The notes below the pieces were generated by a model. It saw only the letters and a list, made by a program, of their open reading frames with translations. It had not been told where the DNA came from and searched no databases. Position numbers and translations under genes: made by a program. A stretch of DNA of 42,385 nucleotides from Candidatus Woesearchaeota archaeon (lineage in GTDB: Archaea; Nanobdellota; Nanobdellia; Woesearchaeales; GW2011-AR9). The DNA lies in contig JABMOA010000006.1 in assembly GCA_013204355.1 (NCBI GenBank), forward strand, positions 1 to 42,385, in the 5' to 3' direction. This document shows positions 32,840 to 42,385 of this stretch, in pieces. Numbering within the stretch: position 1 is the first letter of the stretch; each line of letters opens with the position of its first letter.

Positions 32840-33013
32840 ATGGTAAAAGGAACAGCAAGTATGGGTAAAAAAAGTGGGAAGAAAACCCACATCCCGTGTA
32901 AACGATGTGGCGGTTTCTCTTATCACGTTAGAAAGAAGAAATGTGCTTCTTGTGGATTCGGAGATACTTCTACAAAACGTAAGTATGCTTGGAATAAGAA
33001 AAATTCAGCTTAA
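32840..33013 (+). CDS. rpl37e: 50S ribosomal protein L37e
   Basis: MVKGTASMGKKSGKKTHIPCKRCGGFSYHVRKKKCASCGFG...; 57 aa with a C4 zinc ribbon, 11 nt after the Sm gene (a conserved archaeal pair). It is below the ORF-track cutoff. Confidence 0.9.
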   Translation: MVKGTASMGKKSGKKTHIPCKRCGGFSYHVRKKKCASCGFGDTSTKRKYAWNKKNSA

Positions 33014-33173
33014 ATTGTTTATATTTCTTTATTTTTATTAATATTATTTTTTTAATATTTTCTTAATTAAAAAGAATTGAATTTTCTAAATTTTATTGAA
33101 AATAGTTTCCTATGTTATTTGTGATTCAATAAAAGGAGGAAGGTTTATAAAAAACTTTTTTGATTTATCTTTT

Positions 33174-33713
33174 ATGACAACACTTGACACATTTATTCAG
33201 GAAGAAGATTATAAGATGTTTAATTCCCGTAGAATCCTCTGGAAGCTACGAGGTTGGGATATTAAACTTACAACCACAGTAGAACAAGGAACTTATAGGG
33301 ATTATTCTGATGCTATAACTTATGAAATAGGGGTTGCCTTGCGGGAATTTGTTAGAAATGGGTTTAAAGCAATTTACGGGGTTGGAGCTCCAATGTATGA
33401 AATAGATGATTTGGAAGCACAAGAAAGGGCGAAAAGTATACCTGCAAGACTTTCAATAGAACTTTCTCAAACTGAAAACAATTATGTTATCGCAGTTTCT
33501 GACAATGGACGAGGTATTATGCTCCAGGATCGTAATAGATTATTTGAAGAAGGATTCTCCACTTGTGGTACAACAGGAATAGGTTTACCAGCAGCACGTG
33601 AAAATGTTTGTCAGTTTGGAGGAAGAATTTACTTTAACACTCACTGTTGGGGAGACCATCTGGAAGATGAGAATATTACAGGAACCACTTTTTACTTGGC
33701 GTTACCAAAATAG
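33174..33713 (+). CDS. Stand-alone GHKL (histidine-kinase-like) ATPase domain protein
   Basis: EFVRNGFKA (N box), VSDNGRGI (G1), GTTGIGLPAA (G2), and no DHp/His-phosphotransfer region. The ATG at 33174 has TATA ggtttataaaaa about 25 nt upstream, whereas 33096 is a TTG. Confidence 0.6.
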   Translation: MTTLDTFIQEEDYKMFNSRRILWKLRGWDIKLTTTVEQGTYRDYSDAITYEIGVALREFVRNGFKAIYGVGAPMYEIDDLEAQERAKSIPARLSIELSQTENNYVIAVSDNGRGIMLQDRNRLFEEGFSTCGTTGIGLPAARENVCQFGGRIYFNTHCWGDHLEDENITGTTFYLALPK

Positions 33714-33806
33714 TCAAATGTTAGAACAGCTAAAAAATATAAACAATAGTCTCCTGGTAGATTATTCTAAAAAACAGCCATTAATTCATCAAAAATAATA
33801 AAAAAA

Positions 33807-34475
33807 TTATCCAGTAATCTTTTCTCTACAAGTAATCCTTAATTCTTTAAAGGTTAGTTGATCACAAATTGTCATGTCGCCCTTAAGTTTTGCAACTTTT
33901 GCAATACAAACTTCTGCATTTAATAGATTCTTTATTTTCTTACATGTTTCTACATCTTTGGTAGCTTGTGCGATTTTATTAAAACAAATATCTTTATCGG
34001 GATTATTGAGGATAAAACACAGACCTGCCTTGTTTGTCTTTAAGGCAACGTCCATGTAACATTCCATGTATTGCAGGTCATTAAATATTTCACCACAAAA
34101 CTGACCTTTCTCTTCCTCTAATGCAAATTTATTATAACAATTATCATGCCAATAAACATTTTCAATATCATCACACGCATCTGGATTATTTTTTAAGATT
34201 GCAATCTCAGATTGACAGAACCCTTGCGTTGTTTCATCTTTCACTAATTTACATGCATCTAAACTCTGACTTTTCTTTGCAAGTTCTACAACACAAGTAT
34301 CTCTTACAACTTCACTCTTAACCTTACTACATGTTCCTGCTTCCATATAACAATAATCTTTCTGACCACCTTCTAAAGCAGAACAAGGGTCATTTGGATC
34401 TACTGGTTCTTTGAATAAGGTACATCCTGCGAAAAGGAGTGTTAATGCCAATAAGATAATTATTAAATATTTCAT
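33807..34475 (-). CDS. Cys-rich repeat lipoprotein
   Basis: Lipobox LLFAGC, then 22 further Cys in a quasi-periodic D-x-C...C pattern (DACKLV, DACDDI, DICFNK, ETCKKI). Confidence 0.65.
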   Translation of the reverse strand: MKYLIIILLALTLLFAGCTLFKEPVDPNDPCSALEGGQKDYCYMEAGTCSKVKSEVVRDTCVVELAKKSQSLDACKLVKDETTQGFCQSEIAILKNNPDACDDIENVYWHDNCYNKFALEEEKGQFCGEIFNDLQYMECYMDVALKTNKAGLCFILNNPDKDICFNKIAQATKDVETCKKIKNLLNAEVCIAKVAKLKGDMTICDQLTFKELRITCREKITG

Positions 34476-34535
34476 TTTATGTGTATTTAGAGAAATCTCC
34501 TTTTAAGTTTTGTGGAAGTGGAGAAATATAATGGA

Positions 34536-34577
34536 AAAAAGAAAATATGTGGACGGCAGGGTTTGAACCTGCGTAGG
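34536..34577. repeat. 42-bp perfect direct repeat, copy 1 (copy 2 at 34615-34656)
   Basis: aaaaagaaaatatgtggacggcagggtttgaacctgcgtagg occurs twice with a 79-bp offset. It covers the tRNA-Leu 3' end plus 12 nt of downstream flank. Confidence 0.85.
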
Positions 34578-34610
34578 AACTGCGCATAAGGGCAGTCTGC
34601 CCTTATCAAC
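34548..34610 (-). pseudogene. Orphan tRNA-Leu 3' half (T-arm + acceptor 3' strand + flank) preceded by a novel 7-bp hairpin
   Basis: The minus strand reads GTTGATAAGGGCAGACTGCCCTTATGCGCAGTTCCTACGCAGGTTCAAACCCTGCCGTCCACA. No complementary 5' acceptor strand lies nearby. Confidence 0.5.
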
Positions 34611-34626
34611 CCTCAAAAAGAAAATA

Positions 34627-34710
34627 TGTGGACGGCAGGGTTTGAACCTGCGTAGGCACTAAGCCACTGGGTCCTAAGCCCAGCCCGTTTGACCGCTCCG
34701 GCACGTCCAC
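34627..34710 (-). tRNA. tRNA-Leu (anticodon UAG), class II, no intron, CCA not encoded
   Basis: GTGGACG-TG-CCGGAGCGGTCAAACGG-G-CTGGG-CTTAGGA-CCCAG-long variable arm-GCAGG-TTCAAAC-CCTGC-CGTCCAC-A. Confidence 0.9.
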
Positions 34711-34754
34711 GTAAACGTATCATTATAGTAGTTTATTTAAAAAAGTATCTATGT

Positions 34755-36329
34755 TTAAACGATCTTAAACAATTTCACAACTCTCTCTTTTCCAATTTCA
34801 AGAATGAATGAAGCTAATCGTGGTCCTTGATCTTTGTTGATTAAGACATTATACGCAATCTTAAAGAAATCTTTGATTGGAAAATCTGCGTTTTTACATA
34901 AGATGTACATTTCTTCATGTAACTCTTTATCTGTCCATTCTTTCTCTTCTAGTTTTTCTGCTACTTGATGTAAAATTGCTTTCTCTTGTTTTGCGAGAGT
35001 AACTTGGGATTTCTTTTGAACTGTAAATGTGAATTCGTCAGGTGCATATTTTTTGATCCAATTAATCGCACATTCTGCTCTGGTCCTTAAACGTTGTTTA
35101 TCATGCTCATTCTTGAGTTCTTTTTCAAAATAGCCAATGACTTTATCTATATCACATTCATAAATTTGTAAAAATGTTGTTAAATGACGGAAGCTTGGTT
35201 GATAAGGGATAGTTTTAGGAATTTTGCCAATATAACTTAATTCATATGCAACAGACATTTTGATTTTATCTTTTTCATTAACGTGGTGTTCACCAAAGTA
35301 CACTCGTTCTACTTTATCAAATTCTTCATAGATTGCAATGACATCTACATCAAATGAAATTGCAAATTCTCTATTTGGACGTGTACCTGCAAATAAGTAT
35401 CGTGCAACTTCTGGTTCGTAAATTTCTAATACATCAGATAAGGTTGTAACATCTCCTGAGGAAGAAGACATTTTTCCAGAACCACCTTTAATGCGAATAA
35501 AATCATACATCACATAAGTTGGTGCATCAAATCCATAAACTTCTTTACAGATTTGTTTTCCTGTATCAAAACTTCCACCTTTCGTAGAATGGTCCTTTCC
35601 ACCAGGTTCAAAATCTACGTTTTCATACATCCATCGCATTGGCCAATCAATCCGCCATTTTAATTTAACATTTCCATCTTTACGAATGTCAACGGTTTCA
35701 GTTGTATCACCACTTAATTTGTAAGAAATTCCCCACTTGCCATCCCATGTTAAATCTGTAACATCATCTGTCCCTAACTTTTTTGAAAAAACTGCGATAG
35801 GTAACCAACTGTCTTCTAAAGGATGTTCTCTATATTGATTGATAATTTTTTTAATTTCTGTAGTATGTTCTAATGCTATTTTGATTTCTTTTGCATATGT
35901 GCCTTTTCTATACATTTTGTGTTGATAAATAAATTCTGGATTAATCCCTACACGCTTCACAGCTTCTTCTACTGCAACTTGATTATGTCGTGCATAACTT
36001 TCATGCATATCATAAGGATCTGGAACATCTACAATTGCTTTTCGTAATTGTTTTTCAAGTTCTTTTTGTTTTGGCATGCCTTTAGGTACTTTTCTAAATA
36101 CGTCGTAATCATCCCATGAATAAATAAAGCGCACTTTCTTTCCTTTCTTTTCTAGTGCACGTTTAACTAAATCTACTGTAATGATCTCTCTAAAATTTCC
36201 AATGTGAACGACTCCAGAAGGCGTGATTCCTGAAGCAACAGTATACTCTTTCTTATCCCCTTTTTGTCGGATAATGTTATCTGCTGCGACATCAGTCCAA
36301 TGAAAGGATTGTTGTTCTTGTGCCATCAA
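34755..36329 (-). CDS. lysK: Lysyl-tRNA synthetase, class I
   Basis: HIGNFRE (HIGH-type) and KMSSSSG (KMSKS-type) motifs; 524 aa with archaeal class I LysRS architecture. Confidence 0.9.
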   Translation of the reverse strand: MMAQEQQSFHWTDVAADNIIRQKGDKKEYTVASGITPSGVVHIGNFREIITVDLVKRALEKKGKKVRFIYSWDDYDVFRKVPKGMPKQKELEKQLRKAIVDVPDPYDMHESYARHNQVAVEEAVKRVGINPEFIYQHKMYRKGTYAKEIKIALEHTTEIKKIINQYREHPLEDSWLPIAVFSKKLGTDDVTDLTWDGKWGISYKLSGDTTETVDIRKDGNVKLKWRIDWPMRWMYENVDFEPGGKDHSTKGGSFDTGKQICKEVYGFDAPTYVMYDFIRIKGGSGKMSSSSGDVTTLSDVLEIYEPEVARYLFAGTRPNREFAISFDVDVIAIYEEFDKVERVYFGEHHVNEKDKIKMSVAYELSYIGKIPKTIPYQPSFRHLTTFLQIYECDIDKVIGYFEKELKNEHDKQRLRTRAECAINWIKKYAPDEFTFTVQKKSQVTLAKQEKAILHQVAEKLEEKEWTDKELHEEMYILCKNADFPIKDFFKIAYNVLINKDQGPRLASFILEIGKERVVKLFKIV

Positions 36330-36548
36330 ATCAGTGAGTGAGGTGAGTTATATAAAGATTTCCTCCAAACTTTATCAAAGTGCGAAGAAATTGAAGATTT
36401 CTAGCACGCCAAAAATCACATAGATTTTTTAGCGTTTGATCAAAAATATATGGCATTCGTTTACACTCAACCATATTTTAAAGTGTATAAATTTGTTAGT
36501 TACTTTTATAAACCACAAAAATTTACTATATATAAAAAAGAGGTACAT

Positions 36549-37427
36549 ATGATTATTACAAGCTGTGGGAATTCTGTAAAGTTAGCGAAGCAACTAGCGA
36601 AAAAGCTGAGATGTAAATATGTACCATTAGAAGTAGGAGCATTTCCTGATGGCGATATGCTCATGCGATTTAAGGCGAAATCTTTTAAGAAAAAGAAGGT
36701 TGTGATTGTACAATCATTTCAACCAAATCCTGATATGAGTTTGTTTGATATTATTTGGGCTGCGGAAACGGCAAAAGATTTGGGAGCGAAAAAGGTGATT
36801 CTTGTTGCACCGTATCTTGCATACATGCGTCAAGATAAGAGATTTAATCCTGGTGAAGCTGTTTCATCTAGAATAATGTCTAAGTTATTAAACAAATCTA
36901 TTGATAAAATAATTACAATTGATCCTCATTTACATAGATACAAATCATTGAAAGATATTTTTACAATTTCTGCAGTAAAGTTAACTGCTAATGATTTAAT
37001 TGGAGATTTTATTAAAAAGAAAATTAAAAATCCTGTGATTATGGGTCCTGATTGGGAATCATACCAATGGGCTGATAAAATTGCAAAGCAAGTAGGAGCT
37101 GAAAGTACATGCTTGGCTAAAACACGATTTTCATATAGAAGAGTCACATCTAAGATGACGAAAGATGTTGAAATCAAAGGAAAAAATGTAATTATTATAG
37201 ATGATATTATTTCTACAGGACATACAATTATTGAAGCTGCAAAAAAAGCGAATAAAAAAGGTGCAAAATCTGTAACTGCAATTGGTGTTCATGGATTATT
37301 TGTTGAAGGAATGGATCAGTTAAAGAAACACGTTGATTATATTTATACGACAAATACGATTGAACATAAAACAAATAAGATTGATATCCTTCCGTTAGTG
37401 TTAAAAGAATTAGCAAAAGAAGAATAA
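36549..37427 (+). CDS. prs: Ribose-phosphate pyrophosphokinase (PRPP synthetase)
   Basis: FPDGDMLMRF, YLAYMRQDKRF and IIIDDIISTGHT PRPP-binding loop. The start is set at MIITSCG. Confidence 0.9.
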   Translation: MIITSCGNSVKLAKQLAKKLRCKYVPLEVGAFPDGDMLMRFKAKSFKKKKVVIVQSFQPNPDMSLFDIIWAAETAKDLGAKKVILVAPYLAYMRQDKRFNPGEAVSSRIMSKLLNKSIDKIITIDPHLHRYKSLKDIFTISAVKLTANDLIGDFIKKKIKNPVIMGPDWESYQWADKIAKQVGAESTCLAKTRFSYRRVTSKMTKDVEIKGKNVIIIDDIISTGHTIIEAAKKANKKGAKSVTAIGVHGLFVEGMDQLKKHVDYIYTTNTIEHKTNKIDILPLVLKELAKEE

Positions 37428-37429
37428 AT

Positions 37430-37720
37430 TTAATTATATAATGCTTTCTTTAAACCAGTATACGTTCCTGATGCTCCTTTTGTTATAGCTACAGAAGTTA
37501 AGTATGCTGTTAACACAGCGCCACCTGCAAGAGTTGCTGCCATGGTTCCATTAAGAATTTTATCTAATAATTCAGGAGATTGATGAAAAAAATTTGCAGA
37601 TTCAATTGCACCACTTGCATAAAAAGAAGATAATGATGCAATCAAAGGAGATACTTCTAAAAGAATCAATGAATCGTAGAGTCTTAATTTTTCTTGTTTT
37701 GCTAAGTTATCTAATATCAT
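37430..37720 (-). CDS. Hypothetical 96-aa protein with a Gly/Ala-rich hydrophobic C-terminal segment
   Basis: ORF begins 1 nt after the stop of the upstream 128-aa gene. It contains GTMAATLAGGAVLTAYLTSVAI. Confidence 0.5.
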   Translation of the reverse strand: MILDNLAKQEKLRLYDSLILLEVSPLIASLSSFYASGAIESANFFHQSPELLDKILNGTMAATLAGGAVLTAYLTSVAITKGASGTYTGLKKALYN

Positions 37721-37721
37721 T

Positions 37722-38108
37722 TTAATTAGTCAATCTCTTAGTTGCCACATCTAAAATCCGATAACAACTCTCTAAATCATGCAATTTAAGTCCTGATTCA
37801 AGTGTAAATTTGACTCTGGAATCATAGGGATGGTTATCAAATTGACCAGATTCATCATATCCATATCGCTCAAAAACACCTCTTGACACCATACGGTCAG
37901 TATTTATACTAAACCTATTTGTTAATTCATAATGTTCTTGCTCAGACATATCTTCCAAAGCATCTAATGCAATTTCTATAGCTGGAAGGTATTCACGAAG
38001 TTCTAAGTCTACAAGTAAACCTGTATTTGAGGGTAATGTTTCTCCTGCAAATTGATACGCCCTTTGAAATGCTTGCTTAGCTTCAATTAAATACTCTATA
38101 TTTTCCAT
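37722..38108 (-). CDS. Hypothetical 128-aa acidic protein
   Basis: ORF with a GGAG about 8 nt upstream and a TATA-like ggtttataaag further upstream. Confidence 0.55.
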   Translation of the reverse strand: MENIEYLIEAKQAFQRAYQFAGETLPSNTGLLVDLELREYLPAIEIALDALEDMSEQEHYELTNRFSINTDRMVSRGVFERYGYDESGQFDNHPYDSRVKFTLESGLKLHDLESCYRILDVATKRLTN

Positions 38109-38185
38109 ATTAATATCTCCTCTATTTAGGTATAAAAAAATAGAATACTTTATAAACCTTTTGTCCCTTCCAAGTGATTATAGAT

Positions 38186-38770
38186 TCAGGCGACTCTTTT
38201 TTTCTCTATCTTTTCAACAGTTGCTGTTAATGAAGATATCCATTGTTCTGCATCATTCGTTACTTCTTCAAATTCAGAAATGAATTTCATTAAATCGTTA
38301 AGAAGTATCTCAATTCTATGAATTTCTGTTTTTCTCTTAATATGACGATCAAGTAAAATAAAAGCACTTTTTAAATTAATAAAAACTCTTTGTAATTCTC
38401 CTGTATGGGAGGATAATTCTTCAATTAATTTTTCTTGTGCGATGTTAAAATCTTCCTGATATTGAAGAGGTACCGCAAGTGTTGTAAATTCTTCCCGAAG
38501 ATCATGACCATAATGGTTAGATTGATATTCTGCTTGAGAAGCAAAACGAAGTTTTTCACATGCATTAGAAATATCGTTTTTCATTTTTCTCAAAAGAAAT
38601 TGTTCTTCAGTTCTAAATGTTCCATCTTTTTCTTGACGGTTTAATACTCCTTGAATTTCTGATTCAACTTTTTTTAAATTTATTAAATGTTCTTTAGCAT
38701 GTGCTATATTTTCCTTTAATTCACCTACATATTTAAATTCCACAGCTAACCATTTTAAAATATTATTCAT
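38186..38770 (-). CDS. Hypothetical ~194-aa all-helical protein, translationally coupled to the adenosyltransferase gene
   Basis: The ATG at 38770 overlaps the pduO-like stop within ATGAATAA. The sequence is predicted to be coiled-coil rich. Confidence 0.55.
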   Translation of the reverse strand: MNNILKWLAVEFKYVGELKENIAHAKEHLINLKKVESEIQGVLNRQEKDGTFRTEEQFLLRKMKNDISNACEKLRFASQAEYQSNHYGHDLREEFTTLAVPLQYQEDFNIAQEKLIEELSSHTGELQRVFINLKSAFILLDRHIKRKTEIHRIEILLNDLMKFISEFEEVTNDAEQWISSLTATVEKIEKKRVA

Positions 38771-39332
38771 TTTTTTTGACCTCATTAAAATATTTGTAAA
38801 TTGGTTGTTGCTCTTTGACTTCTAATTCATTATTTGAATGACGTGCTAATACATAAAACAAATCGCTCAACCTATTAACGTAACATAAAACTGAAGGATT
38901 AATAAGATGATTGGTACTTGCTTTTACTAAAATACGTTCTGTTCTCCTCGTTATGGAACAACATAAATGGAGAAAGGAACTTGCTATAGTTCCACCTGGC
39001 AATATAAATGATGTTTGTGGGCTAAGAACATTTGTAAAACCATCAATATGTTCTTCTAAATCTTTGATATGTTGTGATTCTATTTTTGGGATATCGTAAT
39101 CTGGAAGATGAGAACTTGCCATATCTGACCCAACCGTAAAAAGGTCATGTTGTATTTTTGAAAGTAATTCCCGTAGCTTTTCATTTTCTGTAAAACAGAG
39201 TGTTACCCCAATGATTGAATTTAATTCATCAACAGATCCAATTACTTCTATCCGAAGATCATCTTTGGGAACTCTTGTGCCTCCATAAAAAGATGTTTTT
39301 CCTTGATCACCTGTTTTTGTATATATTCTCAT
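38763..39332 (-). CDS. pduO: PduO-type ATP:cob(I)alamin adenosyltransferase
   Basis: MRIYTKTGDQGKTSFYGGTRVPKDDLRIEVIGSVDELNS is the canonical PduO/MMAB N-terminus. The start is trimmed to 39332, 16 nt after the nrdJ stop. Confidence 0.85.
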   Translation of the reverse strand: MRIYTKTGDQGKTSFYGGTRVPKDDLRIEVIGSVDELNSIIGVTLCFTENEKLRELLSKIQHDLFTVGSDMASSHLPDYDIPKIESQHIKDLEEHIDGFTNVLSPQTSFILPGGTIASSFLHLCCSITRRTERILVKASTNHLINPSVLCYVNRLSDLFYVLARHSNNELEVKEQQPIYKYFNEVKKNE

Positions 39333-39348
39333 TACCCACCTTTTATTA

Positions 39349-41409
39349 TCAATATCCATCTCCAATATTAATGACTTGATCTTCGTAACTTCCATCTCTA
39401 TAAATGGTAATTCCTTTACACTTTGATTTCCATGCAAGCATATACGCATTTTCTACGTCTTTAATAGATGTTGTTCGTGGGAAGTTAATTGTTTTTGAGA
39501 TGGAATTGTCAACATTCTTTTGTAATGTTGCTTGCATTTTAATATGCCATTCAGGTGTAATGTCTTGTGCTGTTACAAAAATATCTCGCACGTCTTTTGG
39601 AATTTCTTTGAATCCTTGAATTCCTCCTGATTTTGCAATCTTCCTAATTAATTCAGGCGTATAAAATCCTCGTTCTTTTGCAACGTTCTCAAATGTTTTG
39701 TTTAAGTAAATTATTTCAGAATCACCTAATACTGTTTTTTGGTAAGAGATTGCAAATAATGGTTCGCATCCGGGAGATGCATCAGCAAGAATACTAATTG
39801 TGCCTGTTGGTGCAAGAGAATTACAGGTAAGATTTCTCATTTTTCTTCCTGCTTGTTCATGTTCAGAACCGCTCCAAGCTGGGCAAGATCCACGTTGTTC
39901 AGCAAGTTTAGATGACATTTCATAGGTTGTATTTTTAATAAAAACCATTAATTTATCTGCGACTTCTAATCCTTGATCTGAGTCATATTTGATACCTAGT
40001 TTGATTAGAAAATCTGCAAAACCCATCATTCCAAGCCCGAATTTTCTGGTATGTTTTGTTCGGTCTTCAATTTCTTTTTGAGGATAACTATTCATATCAA
40101 TAACATTATCTAAAAAGTGAACAGCAGTTTTGATTGTTTCATAAAGATCATCCCACAAAATTTCTTTGTTTTCTACAAATTTGTTTAGATTTAATGATCC
40201 TAGAACTACGCCTTCATAGGGAAGAAGAGGTGCTTCCCCACATTGATTCGTTGTTTCAATGTCTCCAAGATGATTCCCAGGATGTTTTCTATTAATTTCA
40301 TCTATAAAAATTAATCCAGGGTCACCTGTTTTCCATGCATTCTGTGTAATCATTGAAAATACGTCACGTGCCCGAAGTTTTCCATGCTGCTTTCCTGATT
40401 TGGGATCTGTGATCATGTAATCTCTATCTGCTTCTACAGATTTCATGAACCTATCTGTCACACCTACAGAAATATTGAAATTTTTGAGTGACATCTTATC
40501 TCGTTTTGATTCTATGAAACGAATGATGTCTGGGTGATCAACACGCAATACTGCCATATTTGCGCCTGGCCGGATTCCTCCTTGAACGATTGCACCAAAG
40601 GCTTTATCATAAACTTTCATAAATGCAACAGGGCCTGCTGCAATTCCTTGGTGCCTTCCAACCGCATCCATTCTAGGACGCAAACGTGAAAATGAAAAAC
40701 CGGTACCAGATCCACGTTGATGAATAAGAGCTGCATCTTTTAATGTTCCAAAAATTCCTTCCATTGTATCTTGGATTGGAAGAACGAAACAAGAAGAAAG
40801 TTGTTGGGTTTTTGTTCCTGCGTTTTTTAAGGTTGGAGAATTTGGCATGAATTTTAATTCTGACATAACATTAAAAAAACGTTCTTGATAATTTTTAATT
40901 TCTGTATCTGTACCATTATAAAATTTATCAGCTTTCGCAACATTTTCTGAGACTCGTTGTAACATCTGTTGAGGTGTTTCAGTGAGATTTCCAGTGACAT
41001 CTTTTTGAAGATATCGTCGTTCCAGAATTCTGAGAGCTTGATGTGAAAAATTTAAACTCTCATGTGATTCACCTGTACCAATGATTAAAGCAGATGTTTT
41101 TCTTTGCTCATCTTTTTGATGTCTGTGAAGAATGTAGGCTTTTGCAATTTTCACATGACCCCTTTCTATAAGAACTTCTTCTACTAAATCCTGCACAACC
41201 TCAGCAGAAGGTATATTATCCTTATGACGTGCCTTAAGATATGTTAATACATCATTTGCTAATCCGAGTGAGAGAGTACGATCTGCGAGATTTACAGATA
41301 ATGCTGCTTTAAAAATCGCATCTGCTATTTTGACATGATCAAATACAACAACTTTCCCACTACGTTTTTTAATTCCTGTGAGTTCTGTTAATTTATGTGG
41401 ATCTTGCAT
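39349..41409 (-). CDS. nrdJ: Class II (adenosylcobalamin-dependent) ribonucleotide reductase, short type with an N-terminal ATP-cone
   Basis: ATP-cone (VVVFDHVKIADAIFKA), active-site region SSCFVLP, NQCGEAPL, and SISKTINFP...ITIYRDGS. It ends without a Cys-rich tail. Confidence 0.9.
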   Translation of the reverse strand: MQDPHKLTELTGIKKRSGKVVVFDHVKIADAIFKAALSVNLADRTLSLGLANDVLTYLKARHKDNIPSAEVVQDLVEEVLIERGHVKIAKAYILHRHQKDEQRKTSALIIGTGESHESLNFSHQALRILERRYLQKDVTGNLTETPQQMLQRVSENVAKADKFYNGTDTEIKNYQERFFNVMSELKFMPNSPTLKNAGTKTQQLSSCFVLPIQDTMEGIFGTLKDAALIHQRGSGTGFSFSRLRPRMDAVGRHQGIAAGPVAFMKVYDKAFGAIVQGGIRPGANMAVLRVDHPDIIRFIESKRDKMSLKNFNISVGVTDRFMKSVEADRDYMITDPKSGKQHGKLRARDVFSMITQNAWKTGDPGLIFIDEINRKHPGNHLGDIETTNQCGEAPLLPYEGVVLGSLNLNKFVENKEILWDDLYETIKTAVHFLDNVIDMNSYPQKEIEDRTKHTRKFGLGMMGFADFLIKLGIKYDSDQGLEVADKLMVFIKNTTYEMSSKLAEQRGSCPAWSGSEHEQAGRKMRNLTCNSLAPTGTISILADASPGCEPLFAISYQKTVLGDSEIIYLNKTFENVAKERGFYTPELIRKIAKSGGIQGFKEIPKDVRDIFVTAQDITPEWHIKMQATLQKNVDNSISKTINFPRTTSIKDVENAYMLAWKSKCKGITIYRDGSYEDQVINIGDGY

Positions 41410-41465
41410 TAAGTGTTTAAGGGGAGTAGGACTTTAAATATTTATTGGAATAAAAAATAAAAAAA

Positions 41466-42383
41466 TTAACTACACCCAGTAGTCTCTCCACACACTTCAC
41501 ACAGCATACAGGTCCCATTCTGTCGCATTTGTGATGCACCACAACTTCTACATTTTTCTTTATCTTCCGAATTCTTTGAGGAAGGACTAGAAATGTTTGC
41601 ATTTCTATTTGCTTCTTTAGATTCTATTGTTACTGTAGTTTTCTGAACTTCAACCTTTCCAATATCGTCAAACTCCAATAAGAATTCTTTTAACTCATTC
41701 AGAACTGGATGTCCGTCTGATGCAAGAAATTTTTCTGCAATAAGATGTGGGCTTAGTCCTTGGGACAAACTGAAGTTTACTGCTGTTAAGATTGTATTCA
41801 AAAGAACTTCTTGTGCTGGTACGAGCCCTTCCATACTAAAAGAAACTTCTTTCAATGTTCCTTCATCTTCACGTCCTTTCAATTCTAATTTCCTTGGGCC
41901 AACTTTAACTCTTTTGATTACGTTGTTGATTATGATGGTTCCTGAACTTGCTACTTCCTCAACAGGTGTTTCAAAGATTTCTTTGAGTTGTGTGTTTCCT
42001 TCTAATGTTGTATTAAGAGGTTGAGATAATTTACATCCATCTCGGTAAAGCGCAGTTGCTTTCGTTCCCATTGCCCATGCATCATAATATGCTTGTTTGA
42101 TTTGTTCAACAGTCCAATCAGGGGGCATGTTGATTGTTTTTGAAATTGCACCTGAGATAAATGCTTGTGCAGCTGCTAACATTTTCAAATGACCATAAGG
42201 ATGAATATATCTCTCTCCTTTCTTTCCACATTTATTTGCACAATCAAAAATTGGAAGATGTTCTTCTTTCAAATGAGGTGCACCTTCTAAAGTCATAGTT
42301 CCACAGATGTATTCATTTGCGTCAGCAATTTGTTGTTGTGAGAATCCTAGTGCTGTAAGGAGATCTCCTTTTTTACCTTGCAT
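41466..42383 (-). CDS. nrdJ: C-terminal ~305 aa of a second, long-type class II ribonucleotide reductase (5' end outside the window)
   Basis: LEGAPHL..EHLPIFDCANKCG, AISKTINMP...ALYRDGCKLSQPL, and a C-terminal CRSC...CMLCEVCGETTGCS zinc-ribbon/redox tail. Confidence 0.85.
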   Translation of the reverse strand: MQGKKGDLLTALGFSQQQIADANEYICGTMTLEGAPHLKEEHLPIFDCANKCGKKGERYIHPYGHLKMLAAAQAFISGAISKTINMPPDWTVEQIKQAYYDAWAMGTKATALYRDGCKLSQPLNTTLEGNTQLKEIFETPVEEVASSGTIIINNVIKRVKVGPRKLELKGREDEGTLKEVSFSMEGLVPAQEVLLNTILTAVNFSLSQGLSPHLIAEKFLASDGHPVLNELKEFLLEFDDIGKVEVQKTTVTIESKEANRNANISSPSSKNSEDKEKCRSCGASQMRQNGTCMLCEVCGETTGCS

Positions 42384-42385
42384 TA

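Follow-up and report, generated by a model that had tools for sequence, protein, structure and literature searches.

The window analyzed here is a stretch of 42,385 nucleotides and corresponds to one whole contig (C45) of a Candidatus Woesearchaeota archaeon genome. It contains the downstream portion of a gene string for deoxyribonucleotide supply that is conserved in Woesearchaeota and made up of nrdR, a long NrdJ, a short NrdJ, pduO, and a 194-codon gene referred to here as U194. The features of the locus, each with the evidence for it, are as follows.

41466..42385, minus strand: long NrdJ, 3' part (last 305 codons; the C-terminal 305 aa are read over 41466-42383); profile matches and assembly join.
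41410..41465, minus strand: 56-nt spacer between long nrdJ and short nrdJ; sequence only.
39349..41409, minus strand: short NrdJ, 686 aa; Pfam, TIGR02504, and Thermotoga maritima alignment.
38763..39332, minus strand: PduO-type ATP:cob(I)alamin adenosyltransferase, 189 aa; PF01923 and TIGR00636.
38186..38770, minus strand: U194, 194 aa, a predicted four-helix bundle of the family named here U194fam; profile searches and AF2 model.
38109..38185, minus strand: 77-nt spacer between U194 and U128; inferred from the sequence.
37722..38108, minus strand: U128, a 128-aa acidic helical protein; genus-restricted.
37430..37720, minus strand: U96, 96 aa, with a hydrophobic Gly/Ala-rich C-terminal segment; genus-restricted.
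36546..37427, plus strand: prs (ribose-phosphate pyrophosphokinase), convergent; conserved downstream border of a variable slot.

An earlier note on this DNA had read seven items along the minus strand, and all are present in the sequence where it placed them. The long-type NrdJ C-terminus with its CRSC tail, the short-type ATP-cone NrdJ without a Cys tail, the PduO-type enzyme 16 nt past it (supported by PF01923 and TIGR00636), and the ~194-aa helical protein overlapping the pduO stop are all borne out. An acidic U128, 77 nt after U194, and a U96 with a Gly/Ala-rich hydrophobic tail are likewise fair descriptions.

The gene string recurs across the same Woesearchaeota family. Of the 20 PduO loci examined, nearly all combine PduO with two NrdJ, one tail-bearing and the other tail-less with an ATP-cone, so the view of the NrdJ pair and the adenosyltransferase as a unit holds across the family.

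The long nrdJ reading frame runs off the window and was completed by joining contig C45 to contig C2 through a 27-nt overlap; the completeness of the gene rests on this join. The joined frame is an intact ORF of 1081 aa, collinear with its orthologues. The full protein scores 1017.8 bits against NF005122 (cut-off 859) and 559.9 bits against TIGR02504 (cut-off 399.95). The motifs HACFIQS, NPCSE, and TACNLAS are all found, which places both redox cysteines and the thiyl cysteine. The protein closes with a six-Cys zinc-finger-type tail, CRSC...CMLCEVCGETTGCS, with the spacing CRSC...C..C..C....C. No ATP-cone-containing model matched the N-terminus, and the sequence opens directly in an NrdJd-type N-terminus. 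The long NrdJ is thus, as predicted from these features, a complete class II reductase whose six-Cys zinc-finger tail would re-reduce the active site. A truncated upstream nrdJ pseudogene had been named as a finding that would count against the island; the recovered gene is intact, and this objection falls away. The nrdR gene lies upstream of the long nrdJ on contig C2, and the island therefore begins further upstream than the window.

The 56-nt spacer contains T7 and T6 runs that resemble archaeal terminators, followed by a TATA-like AATAAATATTTAAAG box approximately 30 nt before the ATG of the short nrdJ. These elements agree with the putative promoter that had been proposed for this spacer.

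The short NrdJ contains ATP-cone, RNR all-alpha, and RNR barrel domains by Pfam. The barrel (PF02867, 434.7 bits), the all-alpha domain (PF00317, 75.6 bits), and the NrdJ-specific HMM (TIGR02504, 663; cut-off 399.95) place it among the class II RNRs, and the N-terminal ATP-cone covers residues 13-101 (PF03477, 59.8 bits; cut-off 25.8). It is a class II RNR by sequence and is predicted to carry out adenosylcobalamin-dependent nucleotide reduction. The best structural relative is the dimeric class II RNR of Thermotoga maritima (PDB 1xje/1xjk, E 1e-108). The finger loop TNQCGE holds the N-x-C-x-E pattern with the thiyl-radical cysteine, and its N388, C390, and E392 correspond to N320, C322, and E324 of the T. 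maritima enzyme. The redox pair is incomplete. The βA cysteine is kept as C207 (C134 in T. maritima), while C333 of T. maritima, the βF position, aligns with V401 (40207-40209). Cys prevails at the βF position among short NrdJ orthologues, with V replacing it in this genus, I in two genomes (G006 and G128), and A in one (G028). Loss of this cysteine at least three times, and possibly four, would fit a βF cysteine that is dispensable in the short NrdJ clade. The short NrdJ further departs from the T. maritima enzyme in its ATP-cone, its lack of a Cys-rich C-terminal domain, and two additional cysteines specific to the clade, C529 (39823-39825) and C548 (39766-39768). Neither a C-terminal Cys pair nor a zinc-finger domain was found at its end, which reads ...YRDGSYEDQVINIGDGY, and the tail is absent from all of the approximately 25 short NrdJ orthologues in which it was sought. 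The dN/dS of 0.07 indicates strong purifying selection despite the missing tail and βF cysteine.

The domain content and the sequence ends thus bear out two structurally different NrdJ paralogues with a redox tail on only one. Genomes with two NrdJ, one of them Cys-rich-tailed, occur in Frankia and some Alphaproteobacteria, and a split NrdJa and NrdJb occurs in Pseudomonas aeruginosa (Loderer et al. 2017, PMC5704485; Crona et al. 2015, PMC4520616). Within subclass NrdJd, the Cys-rich domain was seen to be missing only where the genome codes for a second NrdJd that has it (Loderer et al. 2017, PMC5704485). As in those systems, a class II reductase without a tail shares its genome with another gene that encodes a six-Cys zinc-finger domain. 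The present case differs in that the two nrdJ genes are adjacent, belong to an archaeon, and encode proteins only ~23-27% identical. It also differs in that the domains are complementary, with the ATP-cone on the tail-less enzyme only, and in that the βF redox cysteine, too, is gone from the tail-less enzyme of this genus. By analogy, the tail of the long NrdJ may act in trans on the short NrdJ. C529 and C548 could also serve as relocated internal cysteines for re-reducing the active site of the short NrdJ, or an external reductant could do so.

The pduO gene begins 16 nt after the short nrdJ, with its real start (MRIYTKTGD) at 39332 and a Shine-Dalgarno-like AGGTGGG in the gap. The protein contains the N-terminal TKTGDxGxT motif and is assigned to PduO by both the domain and the equivalog HMM (PF01923, 185.9 bits, cut-off 24; TIGR00636, 181.6, cut-off 108.45). 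Class II RNR needs adenosylcobalamin, which is required at every turnover. The RNR genes of this genome are the two NrdJ only, with no NrdD found, and three radical-SAM enzymes account for the rest of its B12-binding proteins. NrdJ thus appears from the gene content to be the sole evident adenosylcobalamin client, and PduO would adenosylate scavenged cobalamin directly beside it. PduO and CobA exclude each other across the 114 family genomes: 67 have PduO, 38 have CobA, and one has both (104 have either). The identity of CobA is backed by Pfam scores of 195 and 155 bits.

The ATG of U194 overlaps the pduO stop by 8 nt (ATGAATAA), with a Shine-Dalgarno-like GAGGT inside the 3' end of pduO. The same overlap is present in both sister genomes, and U194 is predicted to be co-translated with pduO through it. 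Single-sequence searches of billions of proteins with U194 gave no match, and no described family was found in Pfam, NCBIfam, PHROGs, PADLOC, or PDB sequences, the only matches there being coiled-coil noise. Profiles built with the help of synteny brought in more than 40 relatives. The genus cluster of U194 aligns with that of five other genera by hhalign with 95% probability (E 3e-8, 155 columns). The AF2 model of U194 consists of four helices of ~43 residues (pLDDT 82.5, pTM 0.74), and a Foldseek search of PDB and BFVD folds returned only generic or designed helical bundles. Judged by this model, the ~190-aa proteins of U194fam form an undescribed family of four-helix bundles. The family shows no nucleotide-binding motif and no conserved His, Cys, or Met able to ligate cobalt. 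Within the genus, U194 changes fast (36-45% identity, dN/dS 0.41-0.56).

Known delivery systems include PduO in pdu operons beside diol dehydratase, and MMAB/ATR with the MeaB/MMAA chaperones for methylmalonyl-CoA mutase. In these, as here, the adenosyltransferase gene lies beside an adenosylcobalamin-dependent client and a gene for an accessory, non-catalytic protein. The present case differs in that the client is NrdJ and in that U194fam is a plain four-helix bundle without P-loop or GTPase features; the likeness is an analogy of possible role only, not family membership. U194 was considered as a G-protein B12 chaperone of the MeaB/MMAA kind and rejected, as the P-loop GTPase domain is absent (no Pfam or NCBIfam match, and only four helices in the AF2 model). 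We know of no dedicated chaperone for NrdJ, and a literature search turned up none.

The U194fam HMM gives full-length matches of 160-240 aa in 43 of the 114 family genomes; it also catches long coiled-coil proteins, so the weaker members among the 43 may be false. An adenosyltransferase gene lies within 281 bp of the U194fam gene in 32 of these 43 (18 PduO, PF01923; 14 CobA, PF02572), and since all association counts come from one taxonomic family, inherited gene order contributes to this number. Three U194fam genes sit at contig ends with their neighbors out of view and are counted outside the 32. In the loci inspected, NrdJ stands on the far side of the adenosyltransferase from U194fam, and one genome (G010) has the order NrdJ-U194fam-CobA. 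The outer flanks of the trio vary and contain prs/lysS, thymidine kinase and a Rad50-like gene, or HIT genes and polB. U194fam is present in 23 of the 67 PduO genomes and 19 of the 38 CobA genomes. It is missing from ~60% of family genomes with NrdJ and an adenosyltransferase; as over half of the relatives that have these enzymes do without it, it would be an optional helper. The gene is located elsewhere in at least five genera. It adjoins cbf5 and ribosomal-protein genes in G070 and G067, is on other contigs in G079 and G007, and is 4.6 kb away in G066.

Adjacency to the adenosyltransferase supports a functional link of U194fam to the B12/NrdJ step. The adjacency is kept despite the exchange of PduO for CobA and differing NrdJ types, which suggests that U194fam would act on what these variants share, the corrinoid itself or NrdJ. 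The most serious alternative, somewhat unlikely in our judgment, is that the adjacency is gene order inherited in one archaeal family and that the protein is a helical, structural, or coiled-coil-like one unrelated to B12 and ribonucleotide reduction. Consistent with it, these loci also share synteny of prs, lysS, and a gene for a Cys-rich lipoprotein, none of them linked to B12, and U194fam is weakly conserved in sequence, coiled-coil-like, dispensable in most genomes, and relocated in several genera. Inherited order fits less well with an adjacency that outlasts a swap to the non-homologous CobA, a swap of NrdJ type, the inversion of order in G010, and a full replacement of the outer flanks, or with genes that are co-directional with short gaps or the 8-nt overlap.

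U194fam could also serve the reductase and not the cofactor, for example as an adaptor bringing reductant or the zinc-finger tail of the long NrdJ to the short NrdJ, or as a partner of ATP-cone NrdJs in allostery or assembly. Every NrdJ directly beside the adenosyltransferase-U194fam pair has an ATP-cone, the short NrdJ has no tail of its own, and the Cys-rich domain is used in trans in the split NrdJa+b (PMC5704485). This account is nonetheless quite improbable: U194fam is just as much a neighbor of single NrdJs that have a CxxC or zinc-finger tail themselves (G115, G036, and G081-G084), and its place in the string is at the adenosyltransferase end, away from the tail-bearing paralogue.

The two remaining genes have a different distribution. 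The 77-nt spacer ahead of U128 contains a T7 run, two TTTATA boxes, and a Shine-Dalgarno-like GAGGAG, and U96 starts 1 nt after U128. The T-run and TATA-like box suggest a separate transcript; the spacer is likely a transcript boundary and promoter, and U128 and U96 probably have their own promoter. Both are genus-restricted. One sister genome (G001) has no U128, and its U96 is broken by an in-frame TAA. Their dN/dS values are 0.71 (U128, nearly neutral) and 0.31 (U96), compared to 0.07 for NrdJ. Neither has a described family in Pfam, NCBIfam, PHROGs, PADLOC, or PDB sequences, and the U128 model (AF2 pLDDT 91) has no fold match in PDB or BFVD folds. A few weak relatives exist elsewhere, none near nrdJ or an adenosyltransferase. 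Other genomes have either no gene at all or unrelated ones between the adenosyltransferase and prs. U128 and U96 are genus-specific, fast-evolving genes in a variable slot, outside the B12 module. The earlier note had suggested joining all three uncharacterized genes with pduO and NrdJ in a self-contained module for corrinoid delivery, reductant supply, or uptake; despite the shared strand, tight spacing, and hydrophobic tail of U96, this is highly improbable and largely refuted by the distribution data, with U194 retained, as its family accompanies the adenosyltransferase in many genera, and U128 and U96 not. The analysis gave no sign of a reductant or of a membrane component for uptake.

The preferred reading of the locus, at a probability of about 0.55, is a conserved nrdR-NrdJ-NrdJ-pduO-U194 string in which U194fam is most likely a cobalamin escort or adaptor, with U128 and U96 outside the B12 module. 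U194fam would most likely be a non-enzymatic escort or adaptor that keeps cobalamin or passes it on between adenosylation and NrdJ loading. Two bolder statements are speculative and rather unlikely. One is that in U194fam class II RNR has its first dedicated factor for cobalamin escort or loading, a small four-helix bundle that would receive the cofactor from either kind of adenosyltransferase and pass it to NrdJ in B12-scavenging DPANN archaea. The other, separate one is that the short tail-less NrdJ clade is a mechanistic variant of class II RNR.

U194 is invisible to single-sequence search, and its relatives were reached only by synteny-guided profiles. The NrdJ pair, with its complementary domains and, in the short enzyme, a conserved active site without the βF cysteine, offers a natural experiment on how far a class II RNR depends on the canonical redox relay. 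Methylmalonyl-CoA mutase has a well-described chaperone system, while the delivery, retention, or repair of the cofactor on NrdJ is essentially unstudied. A family that keeps with the adenosyltransferase through a swap of two unrelated types is a cheap and specific candidate for cofactor delivery. U194fam is found in organisms wholly dependent on scavenged B12 for DNA synthesis.

The genes of the island are listed below as read along the minus strand, followed by the neighbouring prs gene. The inventory that the earlier note gave for the minus strand of 37430-42385 matches the sequence exactly.

37430-42385, minus strand: the stretch of the island inside the window, with all parts listed in the earlier note
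to the window end, minus strand: long NrdJ, last 305 codons, with a six-Cys tail
56 nt, minus strand: AT-rich spacer from long NrdJ to short NrdJ
39349-41409, minus strand: short NrdJ, 686 aa, with ATP-cone, all-alpha and barrel domains and a cysteine-free C-terminal end
16 nt past short NrdJ, minus strand: PduO-type adenosyltransferase, 189 aa (PF01923, 185.9 bits; TIGR00636, 181.6 against a cut-off of 108.45)
overlapping the pduO stop with its ATG (8 nt), minus strand: U194, 194 aa
77 nt, minus strand: spacer before U128, with a T7 run and TTTATA boxes
after the 77-nt spacer, minus strand: U128, 128 aa
1 nt past U128, minus strand: U96, 96 aa
36546-37427, convergent to the island: prs

A search of 33000-42385 for a cobalamin riboswitch or other RNA returned nothing except a tRNA. 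A scan for sigma-70 promoters and terminators, uninformative for an archaeon, returned 17 sites, with 20.6 expected by chance left aside from any terminator, of which there were none.

The window is the complete contig C45 of a 1.04 Mb genome (81% complete). Its end overlaps the start of contig C2 by 27 nt, and joining the two gives an uninterrupted frame. The earlier note had considered that the upstream nrdJ might be a truncated pseudogene; the recovered gene is an intact 1081-aa ORF. The joined long NrdJ is collinear with the orthologues of relatives, scores above the cut-off on two curated NrdJ models, and contains the βA, finger-loop, and βF cysteines. Directly upstream of it on C2 is nrdR (joined coordinates ~44719-45242, past the window end), the product of which carries the Zn-ribbon MYCLFCNNNDTKVLESR. 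An NrdR-box-like palindrome, ACACTACATCTAGCGT, stands ~13 nt ahead of the nrdR start. Several relatives have nrdR upstream of nrdJ as well (loci L080, L086, L088, and L090). A search for related loci with a narrow alignment recovered nine, eight in Woesearchaeota/Nanoarchaeota MAGs and the ninth on a contig filed under a Methanosarcinales MAG.

The long NrdJ of some relatives contains an intein-like insertion of ~360 aa exactly at a catalytic cysteine. The insertion follows NPC (the thiyl Cys) in the sister genome G001 (L023 7578-11879), and HAC (the βA Cys) in G024 (L030 10885-15252) and G012 (L039 10877-15241). The long NrdJ described here has neither.

No further RNR α gene or NrdD was found in this genome. 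Three B12-binding-domain proteins with CxxxCxxC radical-SAM motifs were located (C33:721-1032, C131:987-1358, and C38:8-211), and cobalamin clients other than NrdJ therefore exist. These clients probably need no adenosylcobalamin.

Across the 114 genomes of the family, PduO is present in 67 and a CobA-type adenosyltransferase in 38. Either type is found in 104 of the 114, and both occur together in one genome. The two types share one slot, after nrdJ, and their near-perfect mutual exclusion there indicates non-orthologous displacement in situ. In nearly all of the 20 PduO loci opened, PduO is preceded by a short ATP-cone NrdJ, which is itself preceded by a cone-less, tail-bearing NrdJ. The tail-bearing NrdJ is of the long type in most of these loci and of a ~670-aa type in three. 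With this order kept in nearly all of these loci, the two NrdJ proteins have a stable, complementary domain content. In Frankia and some Alphaproteobacteria, an NrdJ without the Cys-rich domain coexists with one bearing it, and the domain can also stand as a protein on its own, which is the case in NrdJa+b (PMC5704485). Here too one paralogue has the Cys-rich domain and the other does not, and the pair is a new member of an already described pattern.

In a single genome, an 888-aa ORF consists of a short-type NrdJ fused to PduO (L116, G113:C53, 2493-5159). The NrdJ part is cut after ITIYRD, and from the PduO part the first ~35 residues are missing, among them the ATP-binding N-terminus. Either a deletion-fusion or an artefact of the assembly would account for this ORF.

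Alignment of the short NrdJ with the T. maritima NrdJ shows that N388, C390, and E392 are retained, as is the βA cysteine C207. A conserved βA/βF cysteine pair has been described for class I and II RNR (PMC9669993). The βF position is C333 in T. maritima, whereas in the short NrdJ it is V401 (40207-40209). Most short NrdJ orthologues have Cys at this position; as exceptions, the three genomes of the genus all have Val, G006 and G128 have Ile, and G028 has Ala. Two extra cysteines, C529 (39823-39825, RNxxC) and C548 (39766-39768, SGCEP), are conserved throughout the tail-less clade and have counterparts in none of the tail-bearing paralogues. Both adjoin active-site motifs in the sequence, and the short NrdJ may contain a relocated redox pair. 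It may instead use the tail of its neighbour in trans, or it may be a regulatory pseudoenzyme. Purifying selection on the gene is strong (dN/dS 0.07).

The three genes downstream of pduO were searched individually. Word-index single-sequence searches of 5.8 billion proteins with U194, U128, and U96 returned only self-matches, and Pfam, NCBIfam, PHROGs, PADLOC, and PDB sequence profiles gave nothing meaningful for any of them.

In relatives, the interval from the adenosyltransferase gene (or the U194-like gene) to prs is empty or contains unrelated genes. The only genome homologue of U128 is in the sister genome G002, and it is absent from G001. Its other homologues are two weak metagenomic proteins (phmmer, 1.8 billion representatives) and two more weak matches, both away from nrdJ and adenosyltransferase. 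U128 has a dN/dS of 0.71, and its confident AF2 model (pLDDT 91.4) had no match among PDB and viral folds. U96 is present in all three genomes of the genus, with one weak match elsewhere. In the G001 orthologue of U96 (L023 1955-2242), a TAA interrupts the frame at the codon that corresponds to E50, and 82% identity carries on past it; recent pseudogene formation, an error in sequencing, or read-through could each account for this. The T7 run and TTTATA boxes of the 77-nt spacer suggest a putative separate transcript from U128 onward. The earlier note had counted both genes in the module and had taken co-occurrence with nrdJ or pduO in other genomes as its own measure; by that measure both fall outside it, as their weak relatives elsewhere are not near nrdJ or adenosyltransferase. 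A defence, viral, or mobile origin of this variable slot found no support.

The slot holds extra genes in the sister genomes (L023 2244-3811 and L024 5996-7164). One of them, in G001, encodes a 284-aa protein that matches no family; G001 and G002 each also encode a Cys-rich, lipoprotein-like protein of ~201 aa with a signal peptide and a lipobox-like Cys.

For U194, the empty single-sequence result was a false negative, and relatives were later recovered by profile. Helical ORFs of ~170-200 aa occupy the same place downstream of pduO in relatives, and when the genus cluster was compared, profile against profile, with five other genera, the match had 95% probability and an E value of 3e-8 over nearly the full length. 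An HMM of the U194 family, which also catches obvious coiled-coil noise in long ORFs, identified 43 genes of 160-240 aa across the 114 genomes. The order-level search beyond the family returned only two plausible partial relatives, both in family f9 and neither beside NrdJ nor adenosyltransferase.

Built on 26 sequences, the AF2 model of U194 shows four helices of ~43 residues each in a bundle (pLDDT 82.5, pTM 0.74), and Foldseek returned only generic or designed helical bundles. A divergent PduO or ferritin-like bundle was rejected in view of the four long helices, the lack of conserved metal ligands, and the lack of a Pfam match.

Among the 43 genes, all from a single taxonomic family, 32 lie within 281 bp of an adenosyltransferase gene (18 PduO and 14 CobA). 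The co-occurrence that the earlier note proposed to look for was thus found for the first of its three genes. A further three of the 43 lie at contig ends, with the adenosyltransferase likewise at a contig end. NrdJ is the next gene in all loci inspected. The trio is kept with short NrdJ, with a 715-771-aa NrdJ with a CxxC end, and with an 855-868-aa NrdJ with a zinc finger. It is also kept across flanks of prs/lysS, thymidine kinase and a Rad50-like ATPase, or HIT genes and polB. G090 has the layout described here with PduO swapped for CobA, and G010 is locally reordered (NrdJ, U194-family gene, CobA) with the trio intact. Adjacency that outlasts changes of type, flank, and order classically marks genes linked in function, as opposed to genes that merely share ancestry.

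In three CobA-type loci (L078, L080, and L082; e.g., L080 5587-6834), the U194-family gene adjoins, in divergent orientation, a gene for a protein of ~390-415 aa with two tandem thymidine-kinase domains. A Rad50/SbcC-like ATPase of ~810-840 aa comes after it.

The U194 family is optional in the module. About 60% of the genomes that have these enzymes lack it, and in at least five genera it is relocated. It evolves fast within the genus (dN/dS 0.41-0.56) and has no conserved metal-ligating residue.

The earlier note had suggested that the island is a self-contained module. This reading is supported in part, by the U194 family, which tracks adenosyltransferase and NrdJ, but not by U128 and U96, which are unrelated to the module. 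At its core the island has a conserved nrdR-nrdJ-nrdJ-adenosyltransferase module; to this are added one optional accessory family, newly recognised here, and two unrelated genus-level passengers. PduO and CobA have no structural relationship, which makes the adenosyltransferase itself a less likely partner of the U194 family than the corrinoid or NrdJ. Our best guess from these sequences is that the family would serve as a non-enzymatic escort or adaptor in the step from adenosylation to the loading of NrdJ.
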